Below, piece after piece: positions 16,501 through 35,754 of a DNA stretch of 35,915 bases. The notes beneath the pieces are model-generated. The model saw only the letters and a program-made list of their open reading frames with translations. It searched no databases and was not told the DNA's origin. Made by a program: the position numbers and the translations under genes. Origin of the DNA: Gemmatimonadales bacterium (lineage in GTDB: Bacteria; Gemmatimonadota; Gemmatimonadetes; Gemmatimonadales; GWC2-71-9); the NCBI GenBank assembly GCA_036004745.1, contig DASYRD010000121.1:1-35915 (forward strand), given 5' to 3'. Numbering within the stretch: position 1 is the first letter of the stretch; every line of letters starts with the position of its first letter.

Positions 16501-19500
16501 CGTCCCGGACAGCGTCGCGCCGCTCGTGCCGGCGCCCGTCGTGATGGCGAGGGTGACACTCGGCGCTGCCGACGTGACGACGTTGTCGAACGCGTCCTGC
16601 ACCGTCACCCGCACGGCGGGGGTGAGCGTGGCGCCCGCGGCCGCGCCGCTCGGCTGCACGGTGAAGCCCAACTTGCTCGCGGCCCCGGGAATGATGTTGA
16701 AGGTGGTGCTCGTGGCGCCCGTGAGGCCGCTCCCCGTGGCCGCGACCGTGTAACCGGTCGCAGCCCGGTCGATGCTCAGGTCCGCGAAGCTCGCCACGCC
16801 GCGTACCGCCGTCTGGCTCAGCGTCCCCGAAAGCGTGCCCCCACCCGGGTTGCTCCCGATGACCATCGCAACGCTGCCCGCGAAGGTCGTGTCGACGTTG
16901 CCCAGGCTGTCCAACACGCTGACCTGGATCGCGGGCGCGATGATACTGCCCGCCGCGGTCGTGCTCGGCTGGCTGGTGACGGCGAGCCTACTCGGCATTC
17001 CGGCGGTTACGGCAAACCCCGCGCTCGTCGCCCCGGCCAAGCCGTTCGTCGTGGCCACGAGCGTGTAGCCCGTCCCGGCCTTGTTGAGGCTCAGGTCCGA
17101 GAAGGTCACCACGCCGTTCACCGCGTTCCGCGTCAGCGTACCGGCGAGGGTGCTGCCGCCTGGATTCGCGCCGAGGGCGAGGATGACGAGGCTCGACGCG
17201 CTCGTGACCGTGTTGCCGTAAGCGTCCTCGACGGCGACCTGCACGAGCGGTGTGATCACACTTCCCGCGACCGTCGCGCTGGGCTGAACAGTGAACGCGA
17301 CCTGCGTGGCGGAGCCCGGCGCGACGTTGAAGTCGATGCTCGTCGCCGTGGCGAGGCCGCCGGCCGTGGCGGCGAGTGTGTAGCCGGTCCCGGCCTTGTC
17401 GAGGCTCAAGTCCGCGAACGTCGCCACGCCGTTCACTGCCGTCCGGGTCAGCGTCCCCGCGAGGGTCCCACCGCCGGCGTTGTTCGCGATCGACAGCGTG
17501 ATGTCGTTCGAGGCGCTCGGGACCGGGTTCCCCTGCGCATCCAGAATGGTGACCTGAACCGCGGGGGTCATGACGGCGCCTGCCGCAATCGTGGTCGGCT
17601 GGACGCTAAAGGCGAGACGGCTCGGGGGAGCGGGGACAATCGCGAACGCCACACTCGTGGCTCCCGTCAGACCGCTTGCCGTGGCGCTCAGCGTGTAGCC
17701 CGTGCCGGCCTTGTCGACGCTCAGGTCGGAGAACAGCGCCACGCCGGCCACCGCCGCCACCGTTGTCGTGCCGCTGAGAATCGCCCCACTCGTCCCGGAG
17801 CCCGGGGTCAGCGCCAGGGTGACGCTCGCGGGTCCACTCACCGTGTTGCCCAACCCGTCCTGCACCGTCACCCGCACGGCCGGGGTCAATGACGCCCCGG
17901 AAGCGGTCGTACTGGGCGGCTCCAGGGTGAAGGCAAGCCGTACCGCCGGGCCCGAGGAAACGGCAAAGCTCGCGCTCACGGTGGAGGTGAGGGCAGGCGC
18001 CACGGCCGTGAGCGTGTAGCCCACGCCTATTTTGTCGAGACTGAGATCGGCAAAGCTCGCCACCCCGCTCGCCGCCGTCACGGTGCGCGTCCCGCTGAGG
18101 GTGGCGTCGGGGCTCCCCGTACCGCTGGTAATCGCCACCGTCACCGCCCCGTTGAACCCGGTGACGGTGTTCCCCAAGCTGTCCTGGGCCGCCACCTGCA
18201 GCGTCGGCCCCATGATGCTCCCCGCCGTGGCCGCGCTCGGCTGCACGACGAACACGAGCCGGCTCGGCGCCCCCAACGTCACACCAAACGTCGTGCTCGT
18301 CGCGCTCGCGACGCCGGCCGCCGTAGCCGTCAACGTGTAGCCCGTCCCCGACCGGTCGAGGCTCAGGTCGGTGAAGGTCGCGACTCCCGCCACCGCGTTC
18401 TGGCTCAGCGTTCCCGTCAGGTTCGACCCGCCCGGGTTCGTCCCGATCGCCACCGTCACCAGCGTCGTGGCGCTCGTCACCGTGTTTCCGAACGCATCCT
18501 GCAGCGCGACGCGCACCGCAGGACTGACGGGGAATCCCGCCTGGGTCGCGCTGGGCTCCCCGGTGAAGGCCAACCTCGCGGGTGGCGCGGGGGCCACTGC
18601 GAACGCCGCGCTCGTCGCGCTCCCCAGCCCCGTCGCGGTGGCGGTGAAGGTGTAACCGGACCCCGCCTTATCGACGCTCAACGTAGTGAAACTCGCCGTG
18701 CCGCCCGCCGCGGTCAGCGTCGTAGTCCCCGCGAGCGTCGCGCCGCTGGTCCCCGTCCCCACGGTGAGCCCCACCGTCACGTTCCCCGTGAACGTGGTGC
18801 TCGTGTTCCCGAGGGCGTCCACCGCCACCACCCCAACTGCCGGGCTCAGCACGCTTCCGGCTTCCACGAGCCCCGGCTGCCCGGAGAACGCCAGCTGCAC
18901 CGCGGCGCCGGCGCCGACGTCGAAGCTGCCGCTCATCGCGCTCGCGACCCCGCTCGCCGTCGCCGTGAGGGTGTACGCCGTCCCGGTCTTGTCCACCGTC
19001 AAATTCGAAAACGTCGCGATTCCTGCCACGGCCGCCACGGTGGTCGTGCCACCCAGCGTACCGCTCGGGTTGCCGGTCCCGGGCGTGATCGCGATCGTCA
19101 CACTCGGATTGGCCGATGCGACCGTGTTGCCCAGCGCATCCTGGATGGCGACCTGAACCGCGGGACTGATCGCTGCACCCGCAATCGTGGCGCCCGGCTG
19201 GACGGCAACGATGAGCTTCGCTGGGGGCCCGGCAGTGATGTTGAACGTGGTGCTCGTGATCACGGGAAGACCGGAGGTCGACGCGGTCAGCACGTAGTCC
19301 GCGCCCGACTTGTTGATGCCGAGATCGGAGAACGTCGCGACCCCAGCCACCGTCGGCTTGGTCGCGGTGCCCGACAGGGTGGCGCCCGGGCTCCCGCTCC
19401 CGGCTCCGATCGCGACCGACACGCTCCCGGCATAGCTGGTGACCGTGTTGCCCAAGACGTCTTGAACGGTCACGTCTACGCTCGGCGCCATGACGCCGCC

Positions 19501-22053
19501 CGCCACGGTGCCGGTCGGTTGCACCGTGAACGCAAGCTTCGCCGCGGGTCCCGGCGTGATGTCGAACCCCGTGCTCGTTGCAGTCGTCAGGGTCCCGGCG
19601 ACGGCGACGAACGTGTACCCACTGCCGGCCCGGTTGATGGCCAGGTCCGAGAAGGTGGCGACACCGTTCACCGCACTCCGGCTCGCCGTCCCGGCGAGGG
19701 TCCCGCCCCCCGGGTTGGCGCCGATCACCACGGTGACCAGGGTCGTCGCGGTCGTGACCGTGTTGCCGAACTCGTCTTGGATGGCGACCTGGAGGGTCGG
19801 CTGGATCGCCGCGCCTGCGATCGTGGTGCCGGGCTGTACGATGAACGCGAGCTTTGTGGCGCCGGCTGTGATGTCGAAGCTGCCGCTCGTCGCGCCCGGT
19901 AAGCCGCCCGAGGCAGCACTCAGCGTGTAGCCGGTGCCCATATTATTGATGGTCAAATCTCCGAAGGTCGCCACCCCGTTCACGACGCTCCGGCTCAGCG
20001 TCCCCGCGAGCGTCCCGCCGCTCGGGTTCGTCCCGATCGCCAGCGTGACGATCCCGGTGGCGCTCGGCACCGTATTCCCGAACGCATCCTGGATCGCCAC
20101 CTGCACGGCCGGCGTCAGTGCCGTCCCGGACACGGCCGTCGTCGGCTGCACGGTGAAGGCGAGCGTCGCGGGGACACCCGCCGCGACATTGAACCCCGCG
20201 CTGGTGCCCGTGGTCAAACCGCTGGCCGTCGCGGCCAACGTGTAACCCGTCCCGGCCTTGTTGAGGCTGAGATCCGAGAAGCTCGCGATGCCGCTCGCCG
20301 CGGTCTGCGTGAGCGTTCCGGTCAGCGTGGCGCCGCCGGGATTCGTGCCGATGGCCAGCGTGATACTCCCGCCGGCGCTCGCTACCGTGTTTCCGAACCC
20401 GTCCTGGATCGCGACCTGGACGGCCGGCGCGAGCGCGCTTCCGGCGACGGCGTTGGCCGGCGGCACGGAGAATCCGAGCTTCGTCGGGGCGCCCGCCGTG
20501 ACGTCGAATCCGCTGCTCGCTCCCGATCCCAGGCCGGGCGCCGTCGCAACCAGGGTGTAGCCGCTCCCGGCCTTGTGGACGCTCAGGTTCGCGAAGCTCG
20601 CGACGGCATTCACCGGGGCCCCGACGAGTGTTCCCTGGAGAGTGCCCCCGCCTGGATTCGTCCCGAGGGCGAGGGTGATCGGGGCGGTGGCGCTCGGCAC
20701 CGTATTGCCCAACGCGTCCTGGATCGCCACCTGCACCGCGGGACCGATCGTGTCGCCTGCGACGATCGTCGTCGGCTGAACGACGAAGGCGACCTTCGCC
20801 GCGGCTCCCGGATCGATGTCGAAACCGCCGCTCGTGGCGGCGGCGAGGCCGCTCGCGGTGGCGACAAGTGTGTAGGCGGTGCCCGCGCTCGCGATGCTCA
20901 GATCCGAGAACGTCGCGACCCCGGTGACAGCGCTCCGGCTCACGGTGCCTGCGAGGGTCCCGCCTCCGGGGTTCGTCCCGATCGACAGCGTGATCAGCGT
21001 CGTGGCATTCGCGACGGGCATGCCCAGCGAGTCCTGCACGGCGACCCGCAGCGGCGGCGAGATGACTCCGCCCGCGACCGTGCGGTTCGGCTGCACCGCG
21101 AATGCGAGCTGCTTGGGCACCTGCTGCACCGTCACGCCCGTGGTGTCGGAGACCGAGTCCACGGTCGCCGTGACGCCAGCCGTGCCGTTCGCGACTGCGG
21201 CTGCCAATCCGGGAGTAGGCCCGATCGACACGGCGCCGGGGTTGGTCGAGCTCCACGCGACGGCTGGTTGCGCAATCAGGCTGTCGCTCTTGTCCCACGC
21301 TTGCACGACGAGCTGTTGTGTTGCGGTGAGCGCGTTGAACTGTACCGCGCTCGGGCTCACCTGGACGCGCGCCGCGCGCTGGCGGACCGTCACGACGAAA
21401 TAGGCGTGCGCCGTGTCGACGCTGGCGCGGATGGTGTCGGTCCCATTCGCGACGGCGACGATCCTTCCGGAGGCGGGGTCAACGCGTACGGCACGCCCGG
21501 TGATGCCGCCGGCAGCGAGCTCATAGCGCGGTGTGATCGTCGCTGAGTCGCTGGGGCTCACGGGCGTGCTGTCGGCCGCCAAGTACCCGGGCCGGAAGTA
21601 GAGACTGTCTCCCAGCGCGGCCAATGTTGCACGGCCGCGCGTCGTATCGCTCAGGAGTGGCCGCATCGCGCTCACGATGACCCGCGCCACGAAGCTCGTC
21701 TCGGGTGGCGAAGCTCCGCTCGCCCCGGTCAGGAGCACCACGCGAATGGAGTCAGCGCCGCGCTTGCGGCCGAAGATGCGATTGGGCTCTACGATCGTGG
21801 CCAACGACGAGTCGCGGCTTTCGAGGCGGAGCCGAGCGTTGGGGAGCGCTTTCCCATCGACCAGCACGCTGATCGGGGCCACGACGGTGCCGCCGGTGGC
21901 GACGAGCACCGTATCCGAGGGGATGACGAATCGGATGCGAGGGGTCGGGGGCTCGGATGGGAGGATGCACGTGGTCAGCAGCGTCGCCAGCCCCGTGACG
22001 GCGAAGCCACGGCGCAGCAAACCGCGAGATTGGGGCGCCTTGCGATCGATCAC
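13528..22053 (-). CDS. Giant (2841 aa) secreted, possibly lipidated, surface protein: N-terminal Big_2-like domains followed by about 24 tandem invasin/intimin-type Big_1 Ig-like domains (adhesin / S-layer-like)
   Basis: GTG start at 22053. The signal MIDRKAPQSRGLLRRGFAVTGLATLLTTC is Tat-like with a Cys lipobox. The repeating ~105-aa unit is ...FTVQPttavAGsvitPAVQVavQDalGNTVtSattlvTLAIGTNPGGgTLaGTltrsAVNGVATFsDLSlDKAGtGYTLvATAsGLagATSaaFdit.G... The protein is very rich in A/T/G/S/V with almost no Cys, and is open across 8.5 kb. Confidence 0.9.
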   Translation of the reverse strand: MIDRKAPQSRGLLRRGFAVTGLATLLTTCILPSEPPTPRIRFVIPSDTVLVATGGTVVAPISVLVDGKALPNARLRLESRDSSLATIVEPNRIFGRKRGADSIRVVLLTGASGASPPETSFVARVIVSAMRPLLSDTTRGRATLAALGDSLYFRPGYLAADSTPVSPSDSATITPRYELAAGGITGRAVRVDPASGRIVAVANGTDTIRASVDTAHAYFVVTVRQRAARVQVSPSAVQFNALTATQQLVVQAWDKSDSLIAQPAVAWSSTNPGAVSIGPTPGLAAAVANGTAGVTATVDSVSDTTGVTVQQVPKQLAFAVQPNRTVAGGVISPPLRVAVQDSLGMPVANATTLITLSIGTNPGGGTLAGTVSRSAVTGVATFSDLSIASAGTAYTLVATASGLAAATSGGFDIDPGAAAKVAFVVQPTTIVAGDTIGPAVQVAIQDALGNTVPSATAPITLALGTNPGGGTLQGTLVGAPVNAVASFANLSVHKAGSGYTLVATAPGLGSGASSGFDVTAGAPTKLGFSVPPANAVAGSALAPAVQVAIQDGFGNTVASAGGSITLAIGTNPGGATLTGTLTQTAASGIASFSDLSLNKAGTGYTLAATASGLTTGTSAGFNVAAGVPATLAFTVQPTTAVSGTALTPAVQVAIQDAFGNTVPSATGIVTLAIGTNPSGGTLAGTLSRSVVNGVATFGDLTINNMGTGYTLSAASGGLPGATSGSFDITAGATKLAFIVQPGTTIAGAAIQPTLQVAIQDEFGNTVTTATTLVTVVIGANPGGGTLAGTASRSAVNGVATFSDLAINRAGSGYTFVAVAGTLTTATSTGFDITPGPAAKLAFTVQPTGTVAGGVMAPSVDVTVQDVLGNTVTSYAGSVSVAIGAGSGSPGATLSGTATKPTVAGVATFSDLGINKSGADYVLTASTSGLPVITSTTFNITAGPPAKLIVAVQPGATIAGAAISPAVQVAIQDALGNTVASANPSVTIAITPGTGNPSGTLGGTTTVAAVAGIATFSNLTVDKTGTAYTLTATASGVASAMSGSFDVGAGAAVQLAFSGQPGLVEAGSVLSPAVGVVAVDALGNTSTTFTGNVTVGLTVGTGTSGATLAGTTTLTAAGGTASFTTLSVDKAGSGYTFTATATGLGSATSAAFAVAPAPPARLAFTGEPSATQAGFPVSPAVRVALQDAFGNTVTSATTLVTVAIGTNPGGSNLTGTLSQNAVAGVATFTDLSLDRSGTGYTLTATAAGVASATSTTFGVTLGAPSRLVFVVQPSAATAGSIMGPTLQVAAQDSLGNTVTGFNGAVTVAITSGTGSPDATLSGTRTVTAASGVASFADLSLDKIGVGYTLTAVAPALTSTVSASFAVSSGPAVRLAFTLEPPSTTASGASLTPAVRVTVQDGLGNTVSGPASVTLALTPGSGTSGAILSGTTTVAAVAGVALFSDLSVDKAGTGYTLSATASGLTGATSVAFAIVPAPPSRLAFSVQPTTIAAGAVMTPAVQVTILDAQGNPVPSASNDITLSIANNAGGGTLAGTLTRTAVNGVATFADLSLDKAGTGYTLAATAGGLATATSIDFNVAPGSATQVAFTVQPSATVAGSVITPLVQVAVEDAYGNTVTSASSLVILALGANPGGSTLAGTLTRNAVNGVVTFSDLSLNKAGTGYTLVATTNGLAGATSAGFAVTAGMPSRLAVTSQPSTTAAGSIIAPAIQVSVLDSLGNVDTTFAGSVAMVIGSNPGGGTLSGTLSQTAVRGVASFADLSIDRAATGYTVAATGSGLTGATSTTFNIIPGAASKLGFTVQPSGAAAGATLTPAVRVTVQDAFDNVVTSAAPSVTLAITTGAGTSGATLSGTPTVVAVGGVALFSDLNIDRAGTGYALTATASGLAEATSSGFDIVAGAPAKLGFSVQPSVAAVGGVIAPAVRVAVQDALGNTVINATSLITVAIGTNPTGGTLSGTLTQSALNGVATFGDLSINAAGIGYTLTTTASGVAGTTSAPFTISSGTPSRLVFTVQPATASAGSLITPDVQVTVRDSLGNTVTSATTLITLAIGTNPSGATLSGTVSRSAANGVASFSDLAIALASSGYTLVATASGLAGGTSAAFDVTPSTATNLAVAAQPTVTQAGSNLAPALQVLARDAFGNTATSFTGNVTVAITVGTGAPGAVLSGTTTRPALAGVALFSDLSIDKAGSGYTLSTTSSGLAGATSAAFGIVPAPASRLAFSVQPSNTVAGRAITPAVKVTAQDPFGNTDTTFTGSVTVVITGGTGTSGAVLSGTRTVSAVKGVATFSTLNINLPGSGYTLTSTAAGLVAATSSGFNITPSTLAFTVQPTTATAGSVITPAIRVTASDTTFTGQITVAITAGTGSPGAVLSGTKTVNAVLGVATFSNLSINKTGNNYTLTASSAGFTSAVSTAFNITPGAAARLVFSGQPTTAAAGSVIAPAVQVTAADALGNAVPSFTGSVTVAIASGTGAVGAQLGGPKTVAAVNGVATFANLNIDKAATGYALAASATGLTSATSTAFNITPGLAANLAFTVQPVTTSAGASVTPAVQVTVQDALGNTVTSSTAQITVAIGTNPGGATLGGTLTQSAVGGIATFAGLSLNKAGTGYTLTAAATGLAGATSASFNITPGSTTSLVFSVQPRTTPKGMNMTPALQVTARDAFGNTATGFAGPVTVAITSGTGAAGAILSGTLTVTAVNGVATFGDLNIDRQGSAYTLTATSSGLTAATSTVFDITVATRLVFTVQPTTAPVGATITPAVQVTAFDDFGNAVTNWVGSMTLAITNGTGTQGASLRGTTTVAAVNGTATFSDLNITKVGTGYSLTATATGLVSAISAAFSIQ
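13560..20950. repeat. Intragenic tandem repeat array, unit about 315 bp (309-318), about 23-24 copies, encoding the Big_1 Ig-like domains
   Basis: The periodicity is visible directly: antisense pseudo-ORFs recur at 13610, 13928, 14243, 14558, 14867, 15176, 15494... with similar translations, and the sense protein repeats correspondingly. The units are similar at the DNA level, not only the protein level. Confidence 0.85.
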
Positions 22054-22243
22054 AAAAACCAGGGTGTGAAGAGCGCAAAATCACACGCTCGGTCACGGGC
22101 CTTAACCCCGGGGGGCGCTACCGGAGTGCGGTCACCAATCTGACGTCAACGCGACCACGCAAACAAGGAACGGGTCCGCCTGGAATCTGTGACGGAGATC
22201 ACGCCTGGCCCGAAGGCTGTTTTGGGTGATAGGATGTCACCCT

Positions 22244-23638
22244 ATGATTACCGCACTCCTCCTCGCCCTGCAGCTCGGCACACCGCCCGTCTACGAGCGC
22301 GTGATCCTCGGCGGCCGCCTGATCGACCCGGCCTCCAACCTCGATGCCGTCCGGAACATCGGCATCTCGAGCGGGCGCATCGCCGTCATTACGACGCGTG
22401 CCGTAGAAGGTCGCGACACGGTCGACGCGCGGGGCCTGGTCGTCACACCCGGGTTCATCGACCTCCACGCCCACGGGCAGGCCCCCGAGACCTATCGGTT
22501 CTACGCGCTCGACGGCGTGACGACAGCGCTCGAGCTCGAGCTCGGCACCTCCGACGTCGCTGCCTGGTACCGCGAACGCGAGGCCGGTGAGCGCATCAAC
22601 TACGGCGTCTCGATCGGCCACATCAAAGTCCGGATGGCGGTGATGCATGATCCCGGCACCCGCATGCCGGTGGCCGACGGCGCCTATCGCCCGGCGACGC
22701 CCGAACAGATCGCTGAGATCGCGCAACGCATCGAGAACGGGTTGAACGAAGGCGCGGTCAGCATCGGCGCCGGGTTTCCGTACACGCCCGCGGCCACACA
22801 CGAGGAGCTGCTCGCGGTGTTCCGCGTCGCCGCCAAGACCAAGACACCGATCCACGTGCACATTATCCCCGGACTCGCCGGGCTCAGAGCCGCCCTCGCG
22901 CTCGCCGGCGAAACCGGCGCCCCATTGCACGTGGTGCACATCAACAGCAGCGGTCAAGCTGAGACGCGCGCGTTGCTCGATGCCGTCAGAGAGGCGCGGG
23001 CGCACGGACTTGCCGTCAGCACGGAGGCATATCCCTATGACGCCGGCATGACGGAGATTCAATCCTCCGTGATCCAAGACGTTTACAAGAATGCTCCCGA
23101 TGAGCGCCTGGCCGAGCTCGAATGGCCGCGGACGGGCGAACGGCTCAATCGCGAGAGCTTCGATCGTTACACCAAGACCGGCGGTCCCCTCGTGATTCAT
23201 ACGAACACAGAGGAGATGGTGGCCGTGGCGATTACGAGCCCGCTCACGATCATTGCGAGCGATGCGTACTGGCAGGACGGCACGGGTCATCCGCGGACGA
23301 CGGGCACGTTCGCCCGAGTCCTCGGCCGCTACGTGCGCGAAACGCACGGACTGAGTCTGATGGACGCGATCCGCAAGATGACCCTCTGGCCCGCGCAGCG
23401 ACTCGAGGCGCGAGTCCCCTCCATGAAACAGAAAGGGCGACTCCTTGTCGGCGCTGACGCAGACATTACGATCTTCGATGCCGCCACGGTGCTCGATCGC
23501 TCGACGTATCGCGAGCCTTCGCTCCCACCTGTGGGCATTCAACACGTGATCGTGAACGGCGTGTCGGTCGTCAAGAACGGGCAAGCAGTTGAAGGGGTCT
23601 CACCAGGAAAGGCGGTACGAGCGGGGGCACCACAATGA
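22244..23638 (+). CDS. Amidohydrolase of the N-acyl-D-amino-acid deacylase (D-aminoacylase) family; candidate N-acetyl-amino-sugar-acid deacetylase
   Basis: Motifs GLVVTPGFIDLHAHGQ (metal-binding HxH), IHVHI, LHVVHIN and VIASDA are characteristic of D-aminoacylase-type amidohydrolases. Start is ATG at 22244 (or GTG at 22226). It overlaps the next gene (ATGA). Confidence 0.8.
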   Translation: MITALLLALQLGTPPVYERVILGGRLIDPASNLDAVRNIGISSGRIAVITTRAVEGRDTVDARGLVVTPGFIDLHAHGQAPETYRFYALDGVTTALELELGTSDVAAWYREREAGERINYGVSIGHIKVRMAVMHDPGTRMPVADGAYRPATPEQIAEIAQRIENGLNEGAVSIGAGFPYTPAATHEELLAVFRVAAKTKTPIHVHIIPGLAGLRAALALAGETGAPLHVVHINSSGQAETRALLDAVREARAHGLAVSTEAYPYDAGMTEIQSSVIQDVYKNAPDERLAELEWPRTGERLNRESFDRYTKTGGPLVIHTNTEEMVAVAITSPLTIIASDAYWQDGTGHPRTTGTFARVLGRYVRETHGLSLMDAIRKMTLWPAQRLEARVPSMKQKGRLLVGADADITIFDAATVLDRSTYREPSLPPVGIQHVIVNGVSVVKNGQAVEGVSPGKAVRAGAPQ

Positions 23639-24687
23639 CCCAGGCGCCGACGGATCCCGACCTTCTTTATGTAGGGACGTATACCGAGAACATCCATCTC
23701 GTTCGCATGGACCGGCGTTCCGGGGAGCTGACGGCAGTCGGTACCGCCAACGCCGGCGGCAACCCGTCCTTCCTTATTATCCACCCAGATCGCCGCGTGC
23801 TCTACGCCGTCAACGAACGGGAGAAGGACGGCGGCGTCAGCGCGTTCGCGATTGACAAAGCCACCGGCGCCCTCACCAAGCTGAACGAGCAGCCGTCGCA
23901 GGGCGGCGCGCCCTGCTACGTGAGCGTGGACCGAACGGGCCGCGTCGCCCTGATCGCCAACTACGTCGGCGGCAACGTTGGCTTGCTGCCCATCGAGACG
24001 AATGGAGCGCTCGCCCCCGCGCATATGGTGCAGCACACGGGGAAAGGACCGAACACCGAGCGCCAGGAAGGGCCGCACGCCCACTGCATCATTCCCGATC
24101 CCTCGAGCCGCTTCGCGCTCGCCGCGGACCTGGGCGCCGACCGCGTCTTTGTCTATCGTCTGGACCTGGACGAGAGAGCGCTGCAACACGTCGGCGAAGC
24201 CGTCATGCGCCCCGGCGCGGGCCCGCGCCACCTCGCGTTCCACCCCACCCTGCCCCTCGTGTACGTCGCCAACGAGCTCGATTCCACGGTCGCGACGCTG
24301 CGATTTGACTCGGGCGCCGGCACACTGACTCCGCAGAGCGCCATTTCGACGCTGCCGCCTGGATGGACCGGGGGGGGCCCGAATTACCCGGCCGACATCC
24401 ACCTCGCGGCCAACGGACGCACGCTCTACGTCTCGAACCGCGGCCACAACAGCATCGCCCTGTTTTCCGTGACCACCGCGGGCGCGCTCGAGCTCGAGCA
24501 GACCGTCTCCAGCCTCGGCGACTGGCCGCGCAACTTCAGCCTCGATCCCACGGAGCGGTGGCTCCTCGTCGCCCATCAGCGGTCCAACTCCGTCATCGTG
24601 TTCCGTCGTGATCCGGACACCGGCGAGTTGTCCCCCACGCGAAATCGGCTCGAAATCCCCAGCCCAGTCTGTCTGCGGTTCGCTTGA
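23635..24687 (+). CDS. Lactonase, 7-bladed beta-propeller family (6-phosphogluconolactonase / sugar-lactone hydrolase-like)
   Basis: LYVGTYTENIHLVRMD...GGNPSFLIIHPDRRVLYAVNE...GAPCYVSVDRTGRVALIANYVGGNV...HCIIPDPSSRFALAADLGADRVFVY is the typical Pgl/YbhE-like lactonase organisation. Confidence 0.85.
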   Translation: MTQAPTDPDLLYVGTYTENIHLVRMDRRSGELTAVGTANAGGNPSFLIIHPDRRVLYAVNEREKDGGVSAFAIDKATGALTKLNEQPSQGGAPCYVSVDRTGRVALIANYVGGNVGLLPIETNGALAPAHMVQHTGKGPNTERQEGPHAHCIIPDPSSRFALAADLGADRVFVYRLDLDERALQHVGEAVMRPGAGPRHLAFHPTLPLVYVANELDSTVATLRFDSGAGTLTPQSAISTLPPGWTGGGPNYPADIHLAANGRTLYVSNRGHNSIALFSVTTAGALELEQTVSSLGDWPRNFSLDPTERWLLVAHQRSNSVIVFRRDPDTGELSPTRNRLEIPSPVCLRFA

Positions 24688-26006
24688 CGGAGCTCCGTCG
24701 AGTCATCGGGTTCGCCGGGGGAGTCGCGCTGATCGTCGGCATCACGATCGGCAGCGGGATCTTCCGCACGCCTCCCACGATCGCCGGGCTCGTCCCCAAC
24801 CCGCTCGTCATCATGGGCCTGTGGACGGCGTTCGGGTTGATCAGCATCTGCGGCGCGCTCACCGTTGCCGAGCTGACCTCGCTTTTGCCGCAGGCCGGCG
24901 GCGTCTACGTGTTCCTGCGCGAGTCGTACGGCGATGCCGCCGCGTTCGTGTTCGGCTGGTTGTACGTGCTGATCACGACGCCCACCACCGTCGCCGCGCT
25001 GGCCGTGGTCTTCGCCGAGTTCCTGCTCAACCTCCTCGGCGCGACCGTCGACGCGAGAGTCCAGCTCATCGCGATCGCCTCGATCGTCATCCTCACGGCG
25101 GCCAACGTGCTCGGCGCGCGCGTCGGGGCCGCGGTGAGCGGCGTGACCACGCTCGTGAAGGTGATCGCGCTGGTCGCAATCATTGTCGGCGTCTTTCTCC
25201 TGGGCCACGGCAGCTTCTCGAACATCACCGAGGGAGGCGCCGTGCAGGGCGGCGGTCTCGCGCGAGCGGTGGCCGCGGTCATTTGGACCTACGACGGCTG
25301 GGTCGCCGTCAGCATGATCGCCGGGGAAGTCGTGGCGCCGGAGCGCCTGATGAAGCGCATCATCATCGTCGGGATGCTGGTGATCGTGACGCTCTACATC
25401 GGCGCGAATCTCGCCTACCTGTACATGATGCCCGTCGGCGTCATGGCGCAGCAAAAAGAAGCGATCGCGCGGACGGTGATGACGGCGATCATGGGACCCG
25501 CGGGTGGCACCCTCATCATGCTCGCGATCATGACGAGCATCTTCGGCGCGTTGAACGGCAATCTCTTGGCCAAGCCGCGCGTCGCCTATGCGATGGGACG
25601 GGACGGGCTCACCTTCGCGTTTCTTGGCAAGATCCATCCGCGCTGGTCCACGCCGTGGGCGGCGCAGGCGATCGTGGGCGTTGTCGCGATTCTCATGGTG
25701 CTGGCGCTCAGGGATTACGACGCGCTCATCACGTACTTTGTGGTCATCGAGTGGGGCGCGTTGATTTTCGCGGTGTGTGCAGTCTTCGTGCTGCGACGGA
25801 AGATGGCCGAGGCCCCTCGACCCTTCCGCACCCCTCTGTATCCGTGGGTGCCCCTGTTTTTCGTGGTGGGCACGATCATTGGTCTATCCGCGATCGTGTG
25901 GGGACAGATTCAGGTCGGCAACTATGCGCCGATTTACGGGCTGGGCATCGCGGCGGCAGGATTCCCCGTTCATCACCTTTGGAAACGATTGAAGAGGAGC
26001 GCATGA
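24684..26006 (+). CDS. APC-superfamily amino-acid(-like) permease
   Basis: TTG start overlaps the lactonase stop (TTGA). Twelve predicted transmembrane segments. N-terminal GFAGGVALIVGITIGSGIFRTP is the APC signature region. Confidence 0.85.
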   Translation: MTELRRVIGFAGGVALIVGITIGSGIFRTPPTIAGLVPNPLVIMGLWTAFGLISICGALTVAELTSLLPQAGGVYVFLRESYGDAAAFVFGWLYVLITTPTTVAALAVVFAEFLLNLLGATVDARVQLIAIASIVILTAANVLGARVGAAVSGVTTLVKVIALVAIIVGVFLLGHGSFSNITEGGAVQGGGLARAVAAVIWTYDGWVAVSMIAGEVVAPERLMKRIIIVGMLVIVTLYIGANLAYLYMMPVGVMAQQKEAIARTVMTAIMGPAGGTLIMLAIMTSIFGALNGNLLAKPRVAYAMGRDGLTFAFLGKIHPRWSTPWAAQAIVGVVAILMVLALRDYDALITYFVVIEWGALIFAVCAVFVLRRKMAEAPRPFRTPLYPWVPLFFVVGTIIGLSAIVWGQIQVGNYAPIYGLGIAAAGFPVHHLWKRLKRSA

Positions 26007-26380
26007 GAAACGCCGTACTGACCGAGAAGGCCCCCAAACCCCTCGGTCCCTATTCGCAGGCCATCATCGAAGGCGATTTCATTTTCGTCGCCGGCCAGGG
26101 TTGCACGAATCCAGCCACCGGGAAACTCGAACGGGGCGACGTGCGGTCGGAGACGAAGCAGGTCTTTGCGAACATACGGGCGATTCTCGAGGCAGCGGGC
26201 TCGTCCCTCGATGCGGTCGTCAAGTGCAACGTGTATCTGCGCGACATCAACGACTTCGCCGCGATGAACGAGGTGTACCTGACCCACTTCTCGGCGCCCT
26301 TCCCCGCGCGCACGACGATTCAAGCGGGCGCGCTGCCGGGCGGGATCGCTGTTGAGATTGAGTGCATCGCCAAAAGATGA
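26003..26380 (+). CDS. ridA: RidA / YjgF / endoribonuclease L-PSP family enamine-imine deaminase
   Basis: MRNAVLTEKAPKPLGPYSQAIIEGDFIFVAGQ...VVKCNVYLRDINDFAAMNEVY...PARTTIQAGALPGGIAVEIECIA is the canonical RidA fold sequence. ATGA overlap with the permease gene. Confidence 0.85.
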   Translation: MRNAVLTEKAPKPLGPYSQAIIEGDFIFVAGQGCTNPATGKLERGDVRSETKQVFANIRAILEAAGSSLDAVVKCNVYLRDINDFAAMNEVYLTHFSAPFPARTTIQAGALPGGIAVEIECIAKR

Positions 26381-27384
26381 ACGCGCTCGACCTCGATACA
26401 CCCGCGCTCTACATCGACCGCGACGTCCTCGAGCGCAACATCGCGCGCATGCAGCAGGAGTGCCGAGCGTGGGGCGTCGAGCTGCGGCCCCACGTGAAGA
26501 CGCACAAGATCCCCGAGATCGCCAGGCTGCAGCTCGATGCCGGGGCGATCGGGATCACCGTCGCCAAGGTGGGCGAAGCCGAGGTATTGCCGGGCGACGA
26601 TGTGCTCATCGCCTATCCTTTATTGAAGGCGAAGGTGCCCCGGTTGAACGCGCTCGCGGAAGAGCGACACGTGAAGGTGGCCGTCGATTCGGTGGACGTC
26701 GCGCGCGACCTTCAGGGGATCGACACGCTGGTGGAGATCGATGTCGGCGTGGGTCGCTGTGGCGCGCAGACACCCGAGCAAGCGGTCGAGATCGCCAAGG
26801 CGTGCTCGAACTTCCAAGGGATCTTCTACTGGCCGTCGTGGCTCGATGATCCCGGGTTCCGCGTGGCGTGCACGAAGATCGATGCGGTCCTCACTGCGCT
26901 CAGCCGGGCGGGCCTCAAGGCGACAATCGTCTCTGGAGGTTCGACGCCCGGCGCCGCAAAGACGCCGCTGATCCCGCAAACGACCGAAATCAGACCTGGC
27001 ACATACGTCTTCTACGACGCGAGCAGCCTCCACGCCAAGCTTTGCGATGAAGGAGACTGCGCGCTGCGGGTGCTCACGACCGTCGTCAGCACCCAGGTGC
27101 CGGGCCAGTGTGTGATCGATGCGGGGTCAAAGACGTTCTCGAGCGATCAGACCGTCGGCGTGGGAACCTTCGGTCACTTCCCTGGACACCCCTGGACGAT
27201 GCGCAAGATGAACGAAGAGCACGGCTACGTAGAGTTTGATGGCTCGGCCAAAGTCGGAGACAGAGTATGGGTCGTGCCGAGTCACTGTTGCGCGACGGTG
27301 AATCTGCACGACGAGATCTGGTACGGGCGGCGCGGGCAAGTAGACGGCAGTTGGAAAGTCGCGGCGCGGGGGAAGGTGCGTTGA
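26377..27384 (+). CDS. PLP-dependent fold-type III enzyme of the DSD1 / D-serine-dehydratase-like (alanine racemase N-terminal domain) family; candidate amino-sugar-acid dehydratase/deaminase
   Basis: ATG at 26377 overlaps the RidA stop (ATGA). LRPHVKTHKIPEIARLQLDAGAIGITVAKVGEAEV contains the PLP-lysine motif of DSD1-like enzymes. The C-terminal HGYVEFDG...WVVPSHCCATVNLHDEI region is also typical. Confidence 0.8.
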   Translation: MNALDLDTPALYIDRDVLERNIARMQQECRAWGVELRPHVKTHKIPEIARLQLDAGAIGITVAKVGEAEVLPGDDVLIAYPLLKAKVPRLNALAEERHVKVAVDSVDVARDLQGIDTLVEIDVGVGRCGAQTPEQAVEIAKACSNFQGIFYWPSWLDDPGFRVACTKIDAVLTALSRAGLKATIVSGGSTPGAAKTPLIPQTTEIRPGTYVFYDASSLHAKLCDEGDCALRVLTTVVSTQVPGQCVIDAGSKTFSSDQTVGVGTFGHFPGHPWTMRKMNEEHGYVEFDGSAKVGDRVWVVPSHCCATVNLHDEIWYGRRGQVDGSWKVAARGKVR

Positions 27385-28277
27385 CGCAGCTCGTCACCTT
27401 TGGTGAGGCCATGCTGCGGCTCTCCCCGGCCAGGGCCATCGCGGCCACCGTCGGCGGGAGCGAGCTGAACGTCGCCGTGCTGGCCGCCCGACTCGGCGTC
27501 CAATCGCGCTGGGTCTCTCGATTGCCGGCCAACACCCTCGGCCGCATGATCGAAGCCCAAGCCCGCGAGCAGGGCGTCGACGCACGGATCGAGTGGACCG
27601 CCGACGGTCGTGTGGGTCTCTACTTCCTCGAGATCGCCGGCGCGCGCATCAGCAGCGTGTTGTACGACCGCGGGGGCTCGGCGTTCAGCAAGATCACTCC
27701 CGGCAGCGTCGACTGGGCATCGGTATTCGCGGGCGCGCGCTGGTATCACGTCAGCGGCATCACGCCGGCCTTGAGCGACGGCGCCGCCAAGGTTACTGCG
27801 GAGTCACTCGTTGCGGCCAAGAAGGCTGGCCTCACGGTGAGTTACGACGTGAACTACCGTAGCAAGCTGTGGAGCGTCGAGCAGGCCCGCGCGACGCAGG
27901 AGCCGCTGATGGAGCATGTGGATTTGCTCGTCGCCGGCGAGGAAGACGCCCGGCTGATCTTCGGTGCCGCATCCGCCGAAGCGCTCGCGAAGCGTTTTGG
28001 GATCGACGCCGTGGCCATCACGCTGCGGGATAATCCCTGCTCCGCAGGCCTAGCGGTGGACGGGAAGGTCTACAGCGCGCCGCGCTTCGAAGTCGAGACC
28101 GTGGATCCGATCGGCGCCGGCGACGCGTTCACCGGCGGGCTGATCGTGAGCCGTCTCGAAGGTCGCGGCTGGGACGACGCCCTCCGCTTTGCGAGTGCGA
28201 CGGCTGCGCTCAAGCACACGATCCCAGGCGACTTCTGTCTCGTGACTCGCACCCAGGTCGAGGAGGTGTTACGGTGA
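27381..28277 (+). CDS. kdgK: 2-dehydro-3-deoxygluconokinase (PfkB family sugar kinase, KdgK-like)
   Basis: TTG start at 27381 overlaps the upstream stop (TTGA). PfkB motifs: GGSELNVAV and DPIGAGDAFTGGLI. Confidence 0.8.
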   Translation: MTQLVTFGEAMLRLSPARAIAATVGGSELNVAVLAARLGVQSRWVSRLPANTLGRMIEAQAREQGVDARIEWTADGRVGLYFLEIAGARISSVLYDRGGSAFSKITPGSVDWASVFAGARWYHVSGITPALSDGAAKVTAESLVAAKKAGLTVSYDVNYRSKLWSVEQARATQEPLMEHVDLLVAGEEDARLIFGAASAEALAKRFGIDAVAITLRDNPCSAGLAVDGKVYSAPRFEVETVDPIGAGDAFTGGLIVSRLEGRGWDDALRFASATAALKHTIPGDFCLVTRTQVEEVLR

Positions 28278-28882
28278 CCGTCGCGAGGCTGCGCGAGGTC
28301 GGCATCATCCCGATTATCCGCGCATCGAGCGCGGACGCGGTGGTGCCCATTGCCGAAGCGTTGCTGCAGGCCGGACTCCCAGTCGTCGAAATCACGATGA
28401 CGGTTCCCAAGGCGATCGACGCGATCGCCGCCGTCGCGAAACGCTTCCAGGGCAAAATGCTCATCGGCGCCGGGACGGTGACCGATGCCGAGACTGTCAA
28501 ACGAGCGGTGGGCGCCGGCGCGGCGTTCATCGTGTCACCGTGCCTGGTGCCGGAAGTGATCGAAGCCGCGAAGCGCGCGAATGTCGCCGTCCTACCTGGT
28601 GCCCTCACGCCGACCGAAGTCTTCGAAGCGTTTCGCGCAGGCGGCGACATGGTGAAGGTCTTTCCGGTGCAGGCCGTGGGCGGGGCGGACTATCTGCGGG
28701 CGCTACGCGCGCCCTTCCCCGACATCCCGCTCGTCCCGACGGGCGGCGTCACCCTCGAGAACATCGGGGCCATGTTCAAGGCAGGTGCCGCGGCGGTCGG
28801 TGTGGGCACGGACCTGACATCAGGCGACGCGATCGGGAAGCGCGCGACGCAATTCCTCGCGGCCGTGAAGGTGGCGCGCTAG
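28274..28882 (+). CDS. eda: 2-dehydro-3-deoxyphosphogluconate (KDPG) aldolase
   Basis: GTG start overlaps the kdgK stop (GTGA). Motifs: VPIIRA...[24 protein letters not shown], and the Schiff-base lysine in MVKVFP. Confidence 0.85.
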
Positions 28883-29316
28883 CCCACCGCCTTCTTCACC
28901 AGCGCCGCGATCTTCGCCTCCTCGGCGGCACCCAACTCCTTCAGCGCAAACCCGTTCGCCCACATGTTGCCGTCGTCGAGGTTGGCTTTGTCGCTGAAGC
29001 CAAAGGTCGCGTAACGCGTCTTGAACTTGTGCGCACCCTGGAAAAAACAGACGACCTTCCCGTCCTTCCCAGGTTGAGCGTACGCCGGCATCCCGTACCA
29101 GGTCCTCGGCACGAGGTTCGGCGCGCTCGCCATGACGACGGTATGGAGTCGTTTGGCCATGGTGCGATCGGGTTCCTTCATCGTGGCGATCTTCGCGAGC
29201 ACGACCTCTGCCCCCTCCACCTTGGCCCCCTTCAACTCTTGCACATACTCCTTCATGGCCTGTCGTTCCTCAGGCGTGAATCCCTTGGTCTTCTTGGCCT
29301 TCGGCGACTTCTTCAT
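28879..29316 (-). CDS. DUF1801 (YdhG-like) domain protein
   Basis: 145 aa. ATG at 29316 with AAGGAA about 8 nt upstream. The stop overlaps the eda stop (convergent). Lys-rich N-terminus with a ...WYGMPAYA...VVCFFQ... core typical of DUF1801. Confidence 0.7.
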
Positions 29317-35200: not shown

Positions 35201-35754
35201 CGCCCGACCGTGGCAGCGGGCTCGGCATGGCGATGGTCTACGGTTTGATGAAGCAGCATCTGGGCTACGTGCTGGTGAACAGCACGCTGGGCGTCGGCAC
35301 CGAAGTGCGGTTGTACTTCCCTGTAAGCGCGCACCCTGTCGCCAAGGTGGTGACCGAGGCCTCGCTCCCGGTGCGCCCGCACGCGAAACAAACCATTCTG
35401 GTGGTGGAGGATCAGGAAGCGGTGCGGAGCGCCGCGACGCGGGGACTCAAGCGCTTCGGGTATAGTGTTTTTGCCGCCGCCGACGGCGAAGAAGGTCTGA
35501 AACTGTGGCACGAACATGCGGATACGATCGATCTCGTCGTGTCCGACATCATCATGCCGCGCATGGGGGGGCTCGCGCTGTATGAGGCGGTGAGTCGCGA
35601 GCGGGCGGGTGTCCGGTTCCTGCTGACGAGCGGGTTCACCGGTGAAGAAACACTGCAGCATACGGCCGTGACGCGGACGCTGCCGTTCTTGCCCAAGCCG
35701 TGGACCCTGCACGAGCTCTTAGCGGCGGTGCGGGAGGTGTTGCCGAAGGCTTAG
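32239..35754 (+). CDS. Hybrid sensor histidine kinase: signal peptide, periplasmic Reg_prop beta-propeller repeats + Y_Y_Y domain, transmembrane segment, HisKA, HATPase_c, C-terminal receiver (REC)
   Basis: AGGAAG Shine-Dalgarno. Signal MWWSPRWIVLALGFPTVAYAQ. Repeated ...G.LW.GT..GL..F.G... propeller motifs. Transmembrane segment WWFYVVVALTAVAVVLGGV. H-box GGIAHDLNNVLTAV. N/G boxes LANNGADAM and DNGTGM. REC motifs VVEDQ...DLVVSDIIMPRMGG...KPW. Confidence 0.9.
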   Translation: MWWSPRWIVLALGFPTVAYAQAGAPGLDPQRPISQYVHDIWTIDQGLPQNGILAIAQGRDGYLWLGTEAGLVRFDGVTFTTFTTATTSALKDDYVSAVVVDSSDDVFAGTWVGGVSRLGARASTVIPGAEGAFVNGLYRDRAGRLWAARTGGLLLLENGAFHPAAGVEGSVFSMAEDSSGLLLAGTRNGLIAWQGDRWVPWGTITGPVWTVYHDRADGWWFGTPDALYYSHGARLERLGAAAGLPPGGVTSILESRNGQLWVGTDGSGLARLVNRRFQRFAATDGLSDDAVTFLLEDREGSLWVGTRHGGLNRFRQPVFTLYTPREGLSSKVIWSVYGDRQGALWIGTEAGGLDRLQQGRFTNSMAGKSVVATLQTRDGALWAATRDGLAQLRGGRWEPMTFSGTHPTLSVSALTEDSSGALWLGGTDGLYRWKGGVLRDYTKEAGVEAAKVRAIVEDRDGILWIGTHGRGLLRLQNDRFTAYTTKEGLSNDVVESLFADEHGLWVGTEAGLNLVRGSGARITVLPLKFAVLMTDLFTIVKDDGGNLWLSSNQGLGMVSQRELLAAADSARGSVQVHEMVSLDGRRRIEFNGTSQNAGWKSPDGRLWFPSIKGLVVVDPAHLTSNPLPPPVHIEQIVVDGRAVPVSDTVSVPPGGGGLELHYTATSLLVPERVRFRYRLEGYDQDWVDAGTRRVAYYTRVPGGRYRFHVIAANNDGVWNEAGAALAFRLGLHFYETWWFYVVVALTAVAVVLGGVRLRVRNIEGRAQHLSELVDERTRELQLEIVERSRAEEGLRQAQKMEAVGRLAGGIAHDLNNVLTAVMAHVDLAVTSLPPGSDLHEDLSQAQGAARRGASMIRKLLGFSRRERLVLTPLHLEVLVADIVPSVQRMLPKIEVVVSWEKDLQPVAADAGAVQHMLLNLANNGADAMPNGGRLKIHLEPATPDEKQMAAAEFGAPGHYVVLSVRDNGTGMSPETLARIFEPYFTTKSPDRGSGLGMAMVYGLMKQHLGYVLVNSTLGVGTEVRLYFPVSAHPVAKVVTEASLPVRPHAKQTILVVEDQEAVRSAATRGLKRFGYSVFAAADGEEGLKLWHEHADTIDLVVSDIIMPRMGGLALYEAVSRERAGVRFLLTSGFTGEETLQHTAVTRTLPFLPKPWTLHELLAAVREVLPKA

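Follow-up and report, generated by a model that had tools for sequence, protein, structure and literature searches.

A translationally coupled seven-gene operon of Gemmatimonadales proposed to catabolise a D-amino-sugar acid through 2-keto-3-deoxygluconate

In a stretch of 35,915 nucleotides from the metagenome-assembled genome of a soil Gemmatimonadales bacterium (contig DASYRD010000121.1 of assembly GCA_036004745.1; the whole stretch is called the window below), seven co-directional open reading frames (ORFs) on the + strand, at 22244-28882, are predicted to form one translationally coupled operon. In order, they code for an amidohydrolase, a lactonase, a permease of the amino acid-polyamine-organocation (APC) superfamily, RidA, a DSD1-like enzyme (DSD, D-serine dehydratase) dependent on pyridoxal 5'-phosphate (PLP), a PfkB kinase (KdgK) and Eda. 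The operon, in our view and with somewhat better than even confidence, catabolises a D-2-amino-2-deoxy-aldonic acid, most likely D-glucosaminate derived from N-acetyl-D-glucosaminate or its 1,5-lactone, to pyruvate, glyceraldehyde-3-phosphate and NH3 (plus acetate). This reading is supported by a gene linkage that is conserved and has been re-assembled independently: in a five-gene core common to relatives of the window, in a separately recruited Eda-KdgK pair, in loci with a secreted sugar dehydrogenase and in two loci of other lineages. It also has a precedent, since the same four superfamilies take part in the one proven route from N-acetyl-D-glucosaminate to 2-keto-3-deoxy-6-phosphogluconate (KDPG). 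From the sequences and the genomic surroundings we infer what the substrate is, in which order the lactonase and the amidohydrolase act, where both enzymes are located here and where the lactone comes from.

In the proposed route, the PpgL-like lactonase would open an aldono-1,5-lactone that arises from C1 oxidation of an amino sugar (N-acetylglucosamine, GlcNAc, or chitin fragments), and the D-aminoacylase-like amidohydrolase would take off the N-acyl group to give a free D-alpha-amino acid. The permease, of the L-type amino acid transporter (LAT) kind, would bring in D-glucosaminate, the DSD1-like enzyme (PLP-Lys41, His303-x-Cys305) would eliminate its C3 hydroxyl, and RidA would hydrolyse the released enamine/imine to 2-keto-3-deoxygluconate (KDG). 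KdgK would then phosphorylate KDG to KDPG, which Eda would cleave.

The ORF map bears out the layout given in a preliminary description of this DNA: at each of the six junctions the start and stop codons share 4 nt of the form NTGA (ATGA, TTGA, ATGA, ATGA, TTGA and GTGA), and the TTG starts of the permease and KdgK genes and the GTG start of the Eda gene agree with the conserved N-termini of homologues. The arrangement is not due to chance, because this set of genes recurs in dozens of contigs from Gemmatimonadota whose flanks otherwise differ. Families were called with Pfam and NCBIfam models at their curated cut-offs, the best structures being taken from the PDB, and the seven family assignments made earlier hold in both model collections.

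The proven route was described by Jiang et al. 2022 in Pseudoalteromonas prydzensis ACAM 620, where N-acetyl-D-glucosaminate (GlcNAc1A) is converted by OngB to D-glucosaminate (GlcN1A) and acetate, GlcN1A by OngC to KDG and NH3, and KDG by KdgK to KDPG (PMC9537276). The ong cluster also holds the essential RidA OngD, the sodium:solute symporter (SSS) family transporter OngIT, the GH20 enzyme OngA, the RpiR repressor OngR and TonB receptors (OngOT), and kdgA, for KDPG aldolase, is present in the ong clusters of Vibrio, Klebsiella and Serratia (PMC9537276). Since ong clusters thus already contain RidA and, in some cases, an aldolase, only the lactonase and the APC permease of the window are additions to Ong; RidA, which the preliminary description had counted as a third, is not. 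For comparison, the ong cluster was recovered from Pseudoalteromonas sp. ZZD1 (L065). Common to the ong cluster and the window are the clustering of a D-aminoacylase-fold deacylase, a PLP deaminase of fold-type III that carries HxC, RidA and a predicted KDG kinase, and, as proposed for the window, the treatment of the amino-sugar acid as a D-amino acid. They differ in that the window has a LAT-type APC permease in place of the SSS transporter OngIT and an added lactonase, in that neither a GH20 OngA, a TonB receptor OngOT, an RpiR OngR nor an AA10 lytic polysaccharide monooxygenase (LPMO) was found in the window, in the location of the deacylase (the window amidohydrolase family is exported, whereas PpOngB is cytoplasmic) and in phylum (Gemmatimonadota versus Gammaproteobacteria). 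The operon had been said to mirror the OngB/OngC route, which is true of the superfamilies but not of descent: RidA and a predicted KDG kinase lie in the cluster, but the amidohydrolase falls outside the OngB clade and lacks the specificity residues of OngB, and the PLP enzyme falls outside the OngC clade, each being 26% identical to its Ong counterpart. On comparison, the amidohydrolase is closer to the N-acyl-D-Glu deacylase 3gip, and the PLP enzyme to 6qkb, 3anu and D-threonine aldolases, than to OngB and OngC. Judged by their sequences, the window enzymes are analogues of OngB, OngC and OngD and not orthologues.

Eda reaches 155 bits against PF01081 and 190.9 bits against TIGR01182 (cut-off 156.05); against PRK09140, the model for 2-keto-3-deoxy-6-phosphogalactonate (KDPGal) aldolase, it stays at 143.8 bits, under the cut-off of 207. 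The kinase (143.6 bits against PfkB) has the KDG kinases 2afb (2e-58) and 1v19 (9e-46) as its best PDB matches. Its best NCBIfam matches are a fusion of 2-keto-4-hydroxyglutarate (KHG)/KDPG aldolase and kinase and a kinase for KDG and 2-keto-3-deoxygalactonate (KDGal), both under their equivalog cut-offs; the score is 294.6 bits against KDG/KDGal kinase (Halo), with a cut-off of 440, and 75 against DhDoxglucKinKdgK, with a cut-off of 400.

RidA scores 134 bits against PF01042 and 148.4 bits against TIGR00004 (cut-off 106.25) and is 31% identical to OngD. Its sequence holds Y17, R103 and E120, whose roles we take to be those of Tyr17, the Arg105-equivalent and Glu120 in Salmonella RidA. The best PDB matches of the DSD1-like enzyme are 6qkb (the D-3-hydroxyaspartate aldolase BhcC), 3anu (chicken D-serine dehydratase), 7dib, 4v15 and 3wqc (D-threo-3-hydroxyaspartate dehydratase), and it scores 139 bits to 6qkb as against 70.9 bits, at 26% identity, to Pseudoalteromonas OngC. 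Lys41, in RPHVKTHK, aligns with Lys45 of chicken DSD, which we take, following Tanaka et al. 2011, to be the PLP lysine, and the metal motif His303-x-Cys305 aligns with H347/C349 of the same protein. OngC carries HxC at this motif and the aldolase BhcC carries HCD; in the D-threonine aldolase AxDTA the metal ligands are His347/Asp349 (PMC4401734). The HxC motif, as in chicken DSD and OngC and as opposed to HxD in aldolases, together with the obligate linkage to RidA, argues for a dehydratase rather than an aldolase. Retro-aldol cleavage of the amino-sugar acid, in the manner of D-threonine aldolases, was weighed and set aside in view of the HxC motif and the linkage to RidA and to KdgK/Eda.

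In a library-wide HMMER search, the Gemmatimonadota DSD1-like enzymes form a single 50% cluster, whose nearest relatives are at most 48% identical to it and score far above any solved enzyme. The HxC motif and the PLP lysine are invariant across this wider clade, and an identity matrix places its members at 30-36% to BhcC, 25-34% to chicken DSD and 21-25% to OngC. The window enzyme shares with DSD1-type enzymes (3anu, 3wqc, 6qkb and the D-threonine aldolases) the two-domain fold-type III architecture, the PHxKTHK lysine and a metal site by the PLP, and with the dehydratases among them the His-x-Cys version of that site. It differs in being shorter (335 aa) and at most 34-36% identical, in belonging to a separate clade and in the gene neighbours of that clade, which include RidA and, in several lineages, also KdgK/Eda, D-aminoacylase-like genes, GH20 and lactonase. 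The clade is an uncharacterised one of predicted dehydratase type, and we propose that its window member is a D-glucosaminate dehydratase/ammonia-lyase giving KDG.

The amidohydrolase matches NF006560 (PRK09061), an NCBIfam family that carries no assigned function, with 491.7 bits (cut-off 340), and more than 7,900 database proteins belong to its family at E<=1e-20. Its best PDB match is the N-acyl-D-Glu deacylase 3gip (3e-38), ahead of D-aminoacylase structures (about 1e-26) and of PpOngB 9kb1 (1.6e-25). For the direct comparison, which gave the 26% identity, residues 56-473 of PpOngB were rebuilt from PDB alignments and the full protein was then recovered (P0121). The functional residues of OngB were defined with its structure by Wang et al. 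2025 and comprise the metal and catalytic residues His68, His70, Cys97, His222, His252 and Asp368, the substrate residues Tyr194, Leu116, Leu370 and the carboxylate clamp Lys254/Tyr285/Arg379, and the sugar-specific residues Ser292, Gln298, Glu226, Ser290 and Ala193/Ala256/Gly348 (PMC12017989). The window protein keeps H75 and H77 (HxH), H206, H232, the catalytic D340, Tyr180 (Y194 in OngB), Tyr263 (Y285) and Arg351 (R379). The metal ligand Cys97 of OngB aligns with Leu100, beside Glu97-Leu-Glu99, and Lys254 is replaced by Asn234, Leu370 by Tyr342, Gly348 by Thr320, Ser290 by Gly268, Ser292 by Thr270 (the D-aminoacylase state) and Gln298 by Val276; Glu226 corresponds to Gly210 in the pairwise alignment and to a gap in the family alignment. 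The Leu116 acyl-pocket loop of OngB, about 25 residues, is deleted.

The loss of the Cys ligand is a property of the family, for it is missing (as Leu, Val or Ile) in 15 of 15 aligned members from several phyla, in all of which the flanking Glu-x-Glu is invariant. With respect to the beta-site of subtype V (Cys, His, His; Asp; HxH), the Cys is absent and the remaining ligands are present. The family thus shares with the D-aminoacylases and the N-acyl-D-glutamate deacylase (AfDam 1m7j and BbDam 3gip; subtype V) the fold, the HxH, the two His and the Asp, the Tyr and Arg that contact the amide and alpha-carboxylate groups, and a GHPR motif; it differs in having Leu/Val/Ile for the Cys ligand, the Glu-x-Glu, Asn for Lys, the loop deletion and an N-terminal export signal across the family. 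In terms of predicted active-site residues, it is a distinct family of the D-aminoacylase fold, neither OngB nor a subtype V D-aminoacylase, and a natural example of this fold with a replaced Cys metal ligand. The retention of the Tyr and Arg of the alpha-carboxylate clamp and of the amide-oxygen Tyr indicates a substrate of the N-acyl alpha-amino-acid type, and the enzyme is probably an exported N-deacylase of a D-alpha-amino-acid-type substrate. An AlphaFold2 model (10 sequences, 80-100% identical) had a mean pLDDT of 35.7 and was unusable.

The lactonase (401 bits against PF10282) finds among its PDB matches the periplasmic gluconolactonase PpgL (6igb, 1.3e-48) and 6-phosphogluconolactonases. 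The permease scores 167 bits against AA_permease_2 and 195.9 bits, under the cut-off of 701.8, against the LAT model TIGR00911; its best PDB matches are the bacterial Ala/Ser/Cys exchanger BasC (5e-51) and then human b0,+AT and LAT1, and IGSGIF is the motif of its first transmembrane helix (TM1). In LATs, the G(S/T)G motif of TM1 holds the alpha-carboxylate of the free amino acid. An APC permease for an amino-sugar acid had been thought unusual, an objection that falls away if deacylation precedes uptake, as suggested by an amidohydrolase of an exported family next to a LAT-type carrier of alpha-amino acids: D-glucosaminate is a free alpha-amino acid, which would explain an amino-acid carrier in a sugar-acid operon. 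We therefore propose that the permease imports the free D-amino-sugar acid.

The conservation of the module was followed by tblastn with the seven window proteins in 62 loci from a genome scan, all in metagenome-assembled genomes, and in two long metagenome contigs. In Gemmatimonadota loci whose amidohydrolase is at least 70% identical to that of the window, a core of five genes (amidohydrolase, lactonase, APC permease, RidA and DSD) is linked wherever the contig is long enough, and the flanks are unrelated between loci. The core occurs in at least three arrangements: colinear; with DSD-RidA-APC divergent from lactonase-amidohydrolase; and as APC-RidA-DSD-amidohydrolase. KdgK and Eda are attached to it in the window, L001 and L044 and lie three genes away in L002, while L026 and L029 have KdgK attached. 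A paralogous Eda-KdgK pair (42/39% identity, in the opposite order) is found 1.2 kb from the amidohydrolase of L022, an independent recruitment which speaks for a KDG-type acid as the actual product. The chain from deacylation through PLP deamination with RidA to KdgK and Eda, which the preliminary description put forward, therefore gains support from this conserved and re-assembled linkage, the substrate itself being inferred. The closest long relative of the window is L001, whose amidohydrolase is 91% identical; there, a small gene with a GIY-YIG nuclease domain (12549-12854, - strand) is inserted between the lactonase and the permease.

When the neighbours were clustered all against all, a single other family proved to recur: a secreted protein, about 1,130 aa long, that combines ThuA, GSDH, PKD, cytochrome c and CBM6 domains. 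It is embedded in or adjoins the module in seven loci (L004 11170-14553, L026 12077-15637, L006 10979-14368, and also L005, L014, L017 and L027), and there is none in the window. Its GSDH domain matches the aldose sugar dehydrogenases 2ism and 3a9g, dependent on pyrroloquinoline quinone (PQQ), as well as sGDH 1c9u and Asd 2g8s. PQQ sugar dehydrogenases of the GSDH type oxidise aldoses at C1 to lactones. The recurrence of such a secreted enzyme in relatives points to dehydrogenase-made lactones, and a secreted PQQ sugar dehydrogenase appears to be the lactone source there. An LPMO is a possible source, C1 oxidation by LPMOs giving a lactone first (PMC12017989), but one unsupported in the window: the link to LPMO-oxidised chitin suggested earlier finds no backing, as no LPMO, chitinase or GH20 match was obtained among the window ORFs scanned with Pfam (most of those of at least 150 aa) and the partner in relatives is the PQQ dehydrogenase. 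In L033, genes for a 3-keto-disaccharide hydrolase (PF06439) and a cytochrome c (12387-14059) lie directly upstream of a lactonase exported by the twin-arginine translocation (TAT) pathway, a further predicted periplasmic sugar-oxidation context for the lactonase.

The N-termini of the lactonase and the amidohydrolase distinguish two forms of the module. Form B is marked by a TAT signal on the lactonase (SRRDFLAASA) and a Sec-like one on the amidohydrolase (..LLLALQVTTLSAQ|TT..). Loci with the GSDH gene are all of the Form B type, as read from the lactonase N-terminus in those other than L014 and L027. Form A comprises the window, L001, L002, L013, L018, L025, L040, L044 and L060. Here the lactonase begins MT(E/Q)A.TDPDLLYVGTYTE and has no signal, so that the window protein lacks the signal peptide whereas its sister-clade orthologues have TAT signals, and the amidohydrolase begins MITALLLALQLGTPP. 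This last sequence equals the bona fide signal peptides of homologues in hydrophobicity (Kyte-Doolittle 9-residue mean of 2.72, versus 0.93 in cytoplasmic PpOngB), and it has neither a charged n-region nor an AXA site. Homologues of the amidohydrolase from Acidobacteriota, Bryobacterales, Terriglobales and Steroidobacteraceae (43-66% identical) all carry clear Sec or TAT signals, from which it follows that the family was ancestrally exported; deacylation may thus take place outside the cytoplasm. As to the start codon in the window, a stop at 22190 closes the frame and the GTG at 22226 is the only start available upstream of the ATG; close relatives conserve the stretch that directly precedes the ATG, where it reads '..IGCHPM'. 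The upstream 'GRASLKKEIGCHPM' extensions of some homologues are of no use for fixing it. Amidohydrolase genes and one GSDH gene (L003, L026, P0074 and P0113) are preceded by ORF extensions with 'DPSLRARSARFAQDD' or 'ILSEAKDLLRACGAQDD', which resemble the translation of a single repeat element between genes and mislead start calls; the window yielded no extension of this type.

Scanning metagenomes for the wider DSD clade yielded 80 loci, in 17 of which RidA adjoins DSD and in 5 of which there is an APC-like permease. L137 (281-3498, 49% G+C) holds RidA-DSD-Eda-PfkB in one direction and is an independent occurrence of the predicted deaminase-to-aldolase half of the pathway. In L081 (36-8059, 56% G+C), a D-aminoacylase-like amidohydrolase, DSD, a GH20 hexosaminidase, an exported PF10282 lactonase and a receptor (CarboxypepD_reg/OMP beta-barrel, an outer-membrane protein resembling TonB receptors) stand in a row; this is a predicted Ong-like gene set with a lactonase in another lineage. 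DSD is paired with D-aminoacylase/OngB-like genes in L107 and L078, and in L101 it lies among GH28, esterase, alpha-galactosidase and UxaC genes, that is, in a uronate/KDG context.

Two further known systems can be compared with the operon. In the periplasmic direct oxidation of pseudomonads, the PQQ glucose dehydrogenase Gcd produces the lactone, the gluconolactonase PpgL opens it, and gluconate is taken up and enters the Entner-Doudoroff pathway. The window shares with this system a PpgL-like lactonase and KDPG aldolase as the endpoint, and in the sister loci the module has beside it a PQQ sugar dehydrogenase that is secreted and a lactonase exported by TAT; the window differs in that an amino-sugar substrate would need deacylation and PLP deamination, in that the window has no dehydrogenase gene and in that its lactonase has no signal peptide. 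The Salmonella dga system likewise uses D-glucosaminate as a source of carbon and nitrogen, with KDPG as the endpoint and aldolase cleavage, but it phosphorylates before deamination and its lyase is of an unrelated PLP enzyme type (PMC9529869), whereas the route proposed here would deaminate before phosphorylation, as Ong does. Our literature search found no description of such an operon in Gemmatimonadota, and the only amino-sugar-acid pathways that it returned were Ong, dga and a predicted haloarchaeal route.

Several observations weigh against the amino-sugar-acid reading. None of the window enzymes is orthologous to a characterised amino-sugar-acid enzyme, the identity to OngB, OngC and OngD being 26-31%; among characterised enzymes, those nearest to the PLP enzyme have D-Ser, D-Thr or 3-hydroxy-Asp as substrates, and the one nearest to the amidohydrolase has N-acyl-D-Glu. 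The amidohydrolase is without three features of OngB and the D-aminoacylases, namely the Cys metal ligand, the Lys that binds the carboxylate and the loop of the acyl pocket. Its acyl and side-chain specificity is unreadable from homology, and the kinase, being under the equivalog cut-offs, cannot decide between KDG and KDGal. KdgK and Eda are absent from L024, L030 and L036, which have sufficient flank, and the amidohydrolase homologues outside Gemmatimonadota stand alone, with no lactonase or DSD within 9 kb. Among the scanned window ORFs there is likewise no GSDH and no dedicated regulator. Finally, the predicted topology of the window proteins is inconsistent, the lactonase having no export signal and the N-terminus of the amidohydrolase being hydrophobic but atypical; a signal-less, presumably cytoplasmic Form A lactonase beside a possibly exported deacylase is not accounted for by this reading.

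These points bear on three rival explanations. The operon might salvage D-hydroxy-amino acids: the amidohydrolase would free D-Ser, D-Thr or another D-amino acid from N-acyl-D-amino acids or D-peptides, the LAT-type permease would import it, the DSD1-like enzyme with RidA would convert it to pyruvate or 2-oxobutyrate, and the lactonase, KdgK and Eda would be an unrelated co-transcribed module. This would agree with the nearest characterised relatives (D-serine dehydratase, D-threonine aldolases, D-3-hydroxyaspartate enzymes, N-acyl-D-Glu deacylase and BasC), with the activity of OngC itself, which deaminates D-Ser and D-Thr (PMC9537276), and with the wider-clade loci, most of which have only RidA beside DSD (17 of 80) and no KdgK/Eda. 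We nevertheless regard it as unlikely, because it leaves unexplained the constant pairing of amidohydrolase and lactonase, the translational coupling to KdgK and Eda, the Eda-KdgK pair of L022, the RidA-DSD-Eda-KdgK order of L137, the GSDH gene in seven loci and the GH20 and lactonase genes of L081. Another explanation retains the logic of the route and changes the substrate to N-acetyl-D-galactosaminate, to unacetylated oxidised chitosan or glucosamine (GlcN) products, or to some other N-acyl 2-amino-aldonic acid made by periplasmic sugar dehydrogenases. Given that Eda passes the KDPG model and fails the KDPGal aldolase model, that the GH20 hexosaminidase of L081 points to substrates of the N-acetylhexosamine type and that, among such compounds, a pathway has been proven for GlcNAc1A alone (PMC9537276), we consider this improbable too, even though the best equivalog matches of KdgK are bifunctional KDG/KDGal kinases, all under cut-off, the acyl pocket of the amidohydrolase is unlike that of OngB (Leu116 loop deleted, Leu370 replaced by Tyr, Ser292 and Gln298 not kept) and the GSDH-CBM6 partner has no known amino-sugar specificity.

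A literal copy of Ong in Gemmatimonadota, fed by LPMO-oxidised chitin and with cytoplasmic steps of the OngB/OngC type, would account for the clustering of the same four superfamilies, and a lactone from LPMO C1 oxidation would give the lactonase a role (PMC12017989). It is very unlikely in view of the lack of orthology (26% identity, absent OngB specificity residues, a PLP enzyme in another clade), the lack of a GH20, TonB receptor, SSS transporter, RpiR regulator or LPMO among what was found in the window, the export of the amidohydrolase family and the pairing of the relatives with a PQQ dehydrogenase. A published survey, with a criterion of more than 30% identity, moreover found ong clusters only in Gammaproteobacteria and one betaproteobacterium (PMC9537276). 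Two other candidates were rejected. Quorum quenching of N-acyl-homoserine lactones (AHLs) by the amidohydrolase and the lactonase is contradicted by PF10282 being no known family of AHL lactonases, by the D-specific PLP enzyme and by the lack of any role for KdgK and Eda; for catabolism of fructoselysine or other Amadori compounds, the matches to the FrlA and FrlD models are far under cut-off and there is no deglycase.

The amino-sugar-acid reading can be extended, tentatively and with considerable doubt, to a periplasm-initiated direct oxidation of amino sugars run by soil Gemmatimonadota with a gene set assembled independently of the gammaproteobacterial Ong system. In this scheme, a secreted PQQ dehydrogenase-cytochrome c would make the lactone of GlcNAc or GlcN (or of an oligomer reducing end), an exported lactonase and a likewise exported Glu-ligand D-aminoacylase variant would turn it into free D-glucosaminate, and LAT import, the DSD1-like enzyme with RidA and a semi-phosphorylative Entner-Doudoroff pathway would follow; the lactonase step would have moved to the cytoplasm in the window lineage. 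The chemistry has been known since 2022, and the gene set described here is a non-orthologous variant of it that may start in the periplasm and that belongs to another phylum, of which little has been cultured. Chitin, chitosan and cell-wall debris give rise to oxidised amino sugars wherever LPMOs, sugar oxidases or PQQ dehydrogenases attack them, and the only catabolic route for them proven so far is that of marine Gammaproteobacteria. If our reading is true, the route is also present in an abundant and almost uncultured soil phylum, where it arose by convergent assembly, the same superfamilies having contributed members that are not orthologous, and soil amino-sugar turnover is tied to periplasmic dehydrogenases, beyond LPMOs alone. 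It would likewise provide testable functions for the exported amidohydrolase family, the DSD1-like clade and a bacterial LAT-type permease.

Table 1. Features of the predicted operon and its upstream region (window coordinates)
Feature	Position	Strand	Basis
Divergent intergenic region, presumed promoter/leader	22054..22243		between 2841-aa minus-strand gene and operon; ORF map
Amidohydrolase, PRK09061 family, 464 aa	22244..23638	+	Pfam Amidohydro_3/1; NF006560; alternative GTG start 22226
7-bladed beta-propeller lactonase, PpgL/6-phosphogluconolactonase family, 350 aa	23635..24687	+	PF10282
APC-superfamily permease, LAT type, 440 aa	24684..26006	+	AA_permease_2
RidA enamine/imine deaminase, 125 aa	26003..26380	+	PF01042 (Ribonuc_L-PSP); TIGR00004
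DSD1-like fold-type III PLP enzyme, 335 aa	26377..27384	+	Ala_racemase_N + D-ser_dehydrat
PfkB sugar kinase, 2-keto-3-deoxygluconate kinase-like, 298 aa	27381..28277	+	PfkB; PDB matches
Eda, KDPG/KHG class I aldolase, 202 aa	28274..28882	+	PF01081; TIGR01182

The G+C content is about 67% across the window. No Rfam family and no sigma-70-type promoter was matched in or around the operon, the divergent intergenic region included, and terminator-like matches (6, against a shuffle expectation of 4.1 +/- 1.7) are not significantly more frequent than expected. Downstream, a DUF1801 gene (28879-29316, - strand) converges on the Eda gene and overlaps its stop codon by 4 nt; homologues of it adjoin the module in L006 (10476-10973) and L044 (6685-7122), and this may reflect an accessory role loosely tied to the module, or mere coincidence. 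The ORF divergent from the operon (13528-22053, - strand) codes for 2841 aa and has no Pfam matches other than weak, Ig-like ones (Glyco_hydro2_C5, Big_1 and Invasin_D3), all under the gathering cut-offs; its product is probably a giant surface protein. Further downstream lies a hybrid sensor kinase gene (32239-35754, + strand) with Reg_prop/Y_Y_Y beta-propellers, HisKA, HATPase and receiver domains and no DNA-binding domain, an architecture that hybrid two-component systems for sensing polysaccharides typically have; other loci do not conserve this gene beside the module. A family-2 glycosyltransferase (4058-5086, + strand) near TPR, ankyrin, CN-hydrolase and Ser/Thr-kinase/PEGA genes has a secondary match to Chitin_synth_2 (43.5 bits, against a 27-bit cut-off).

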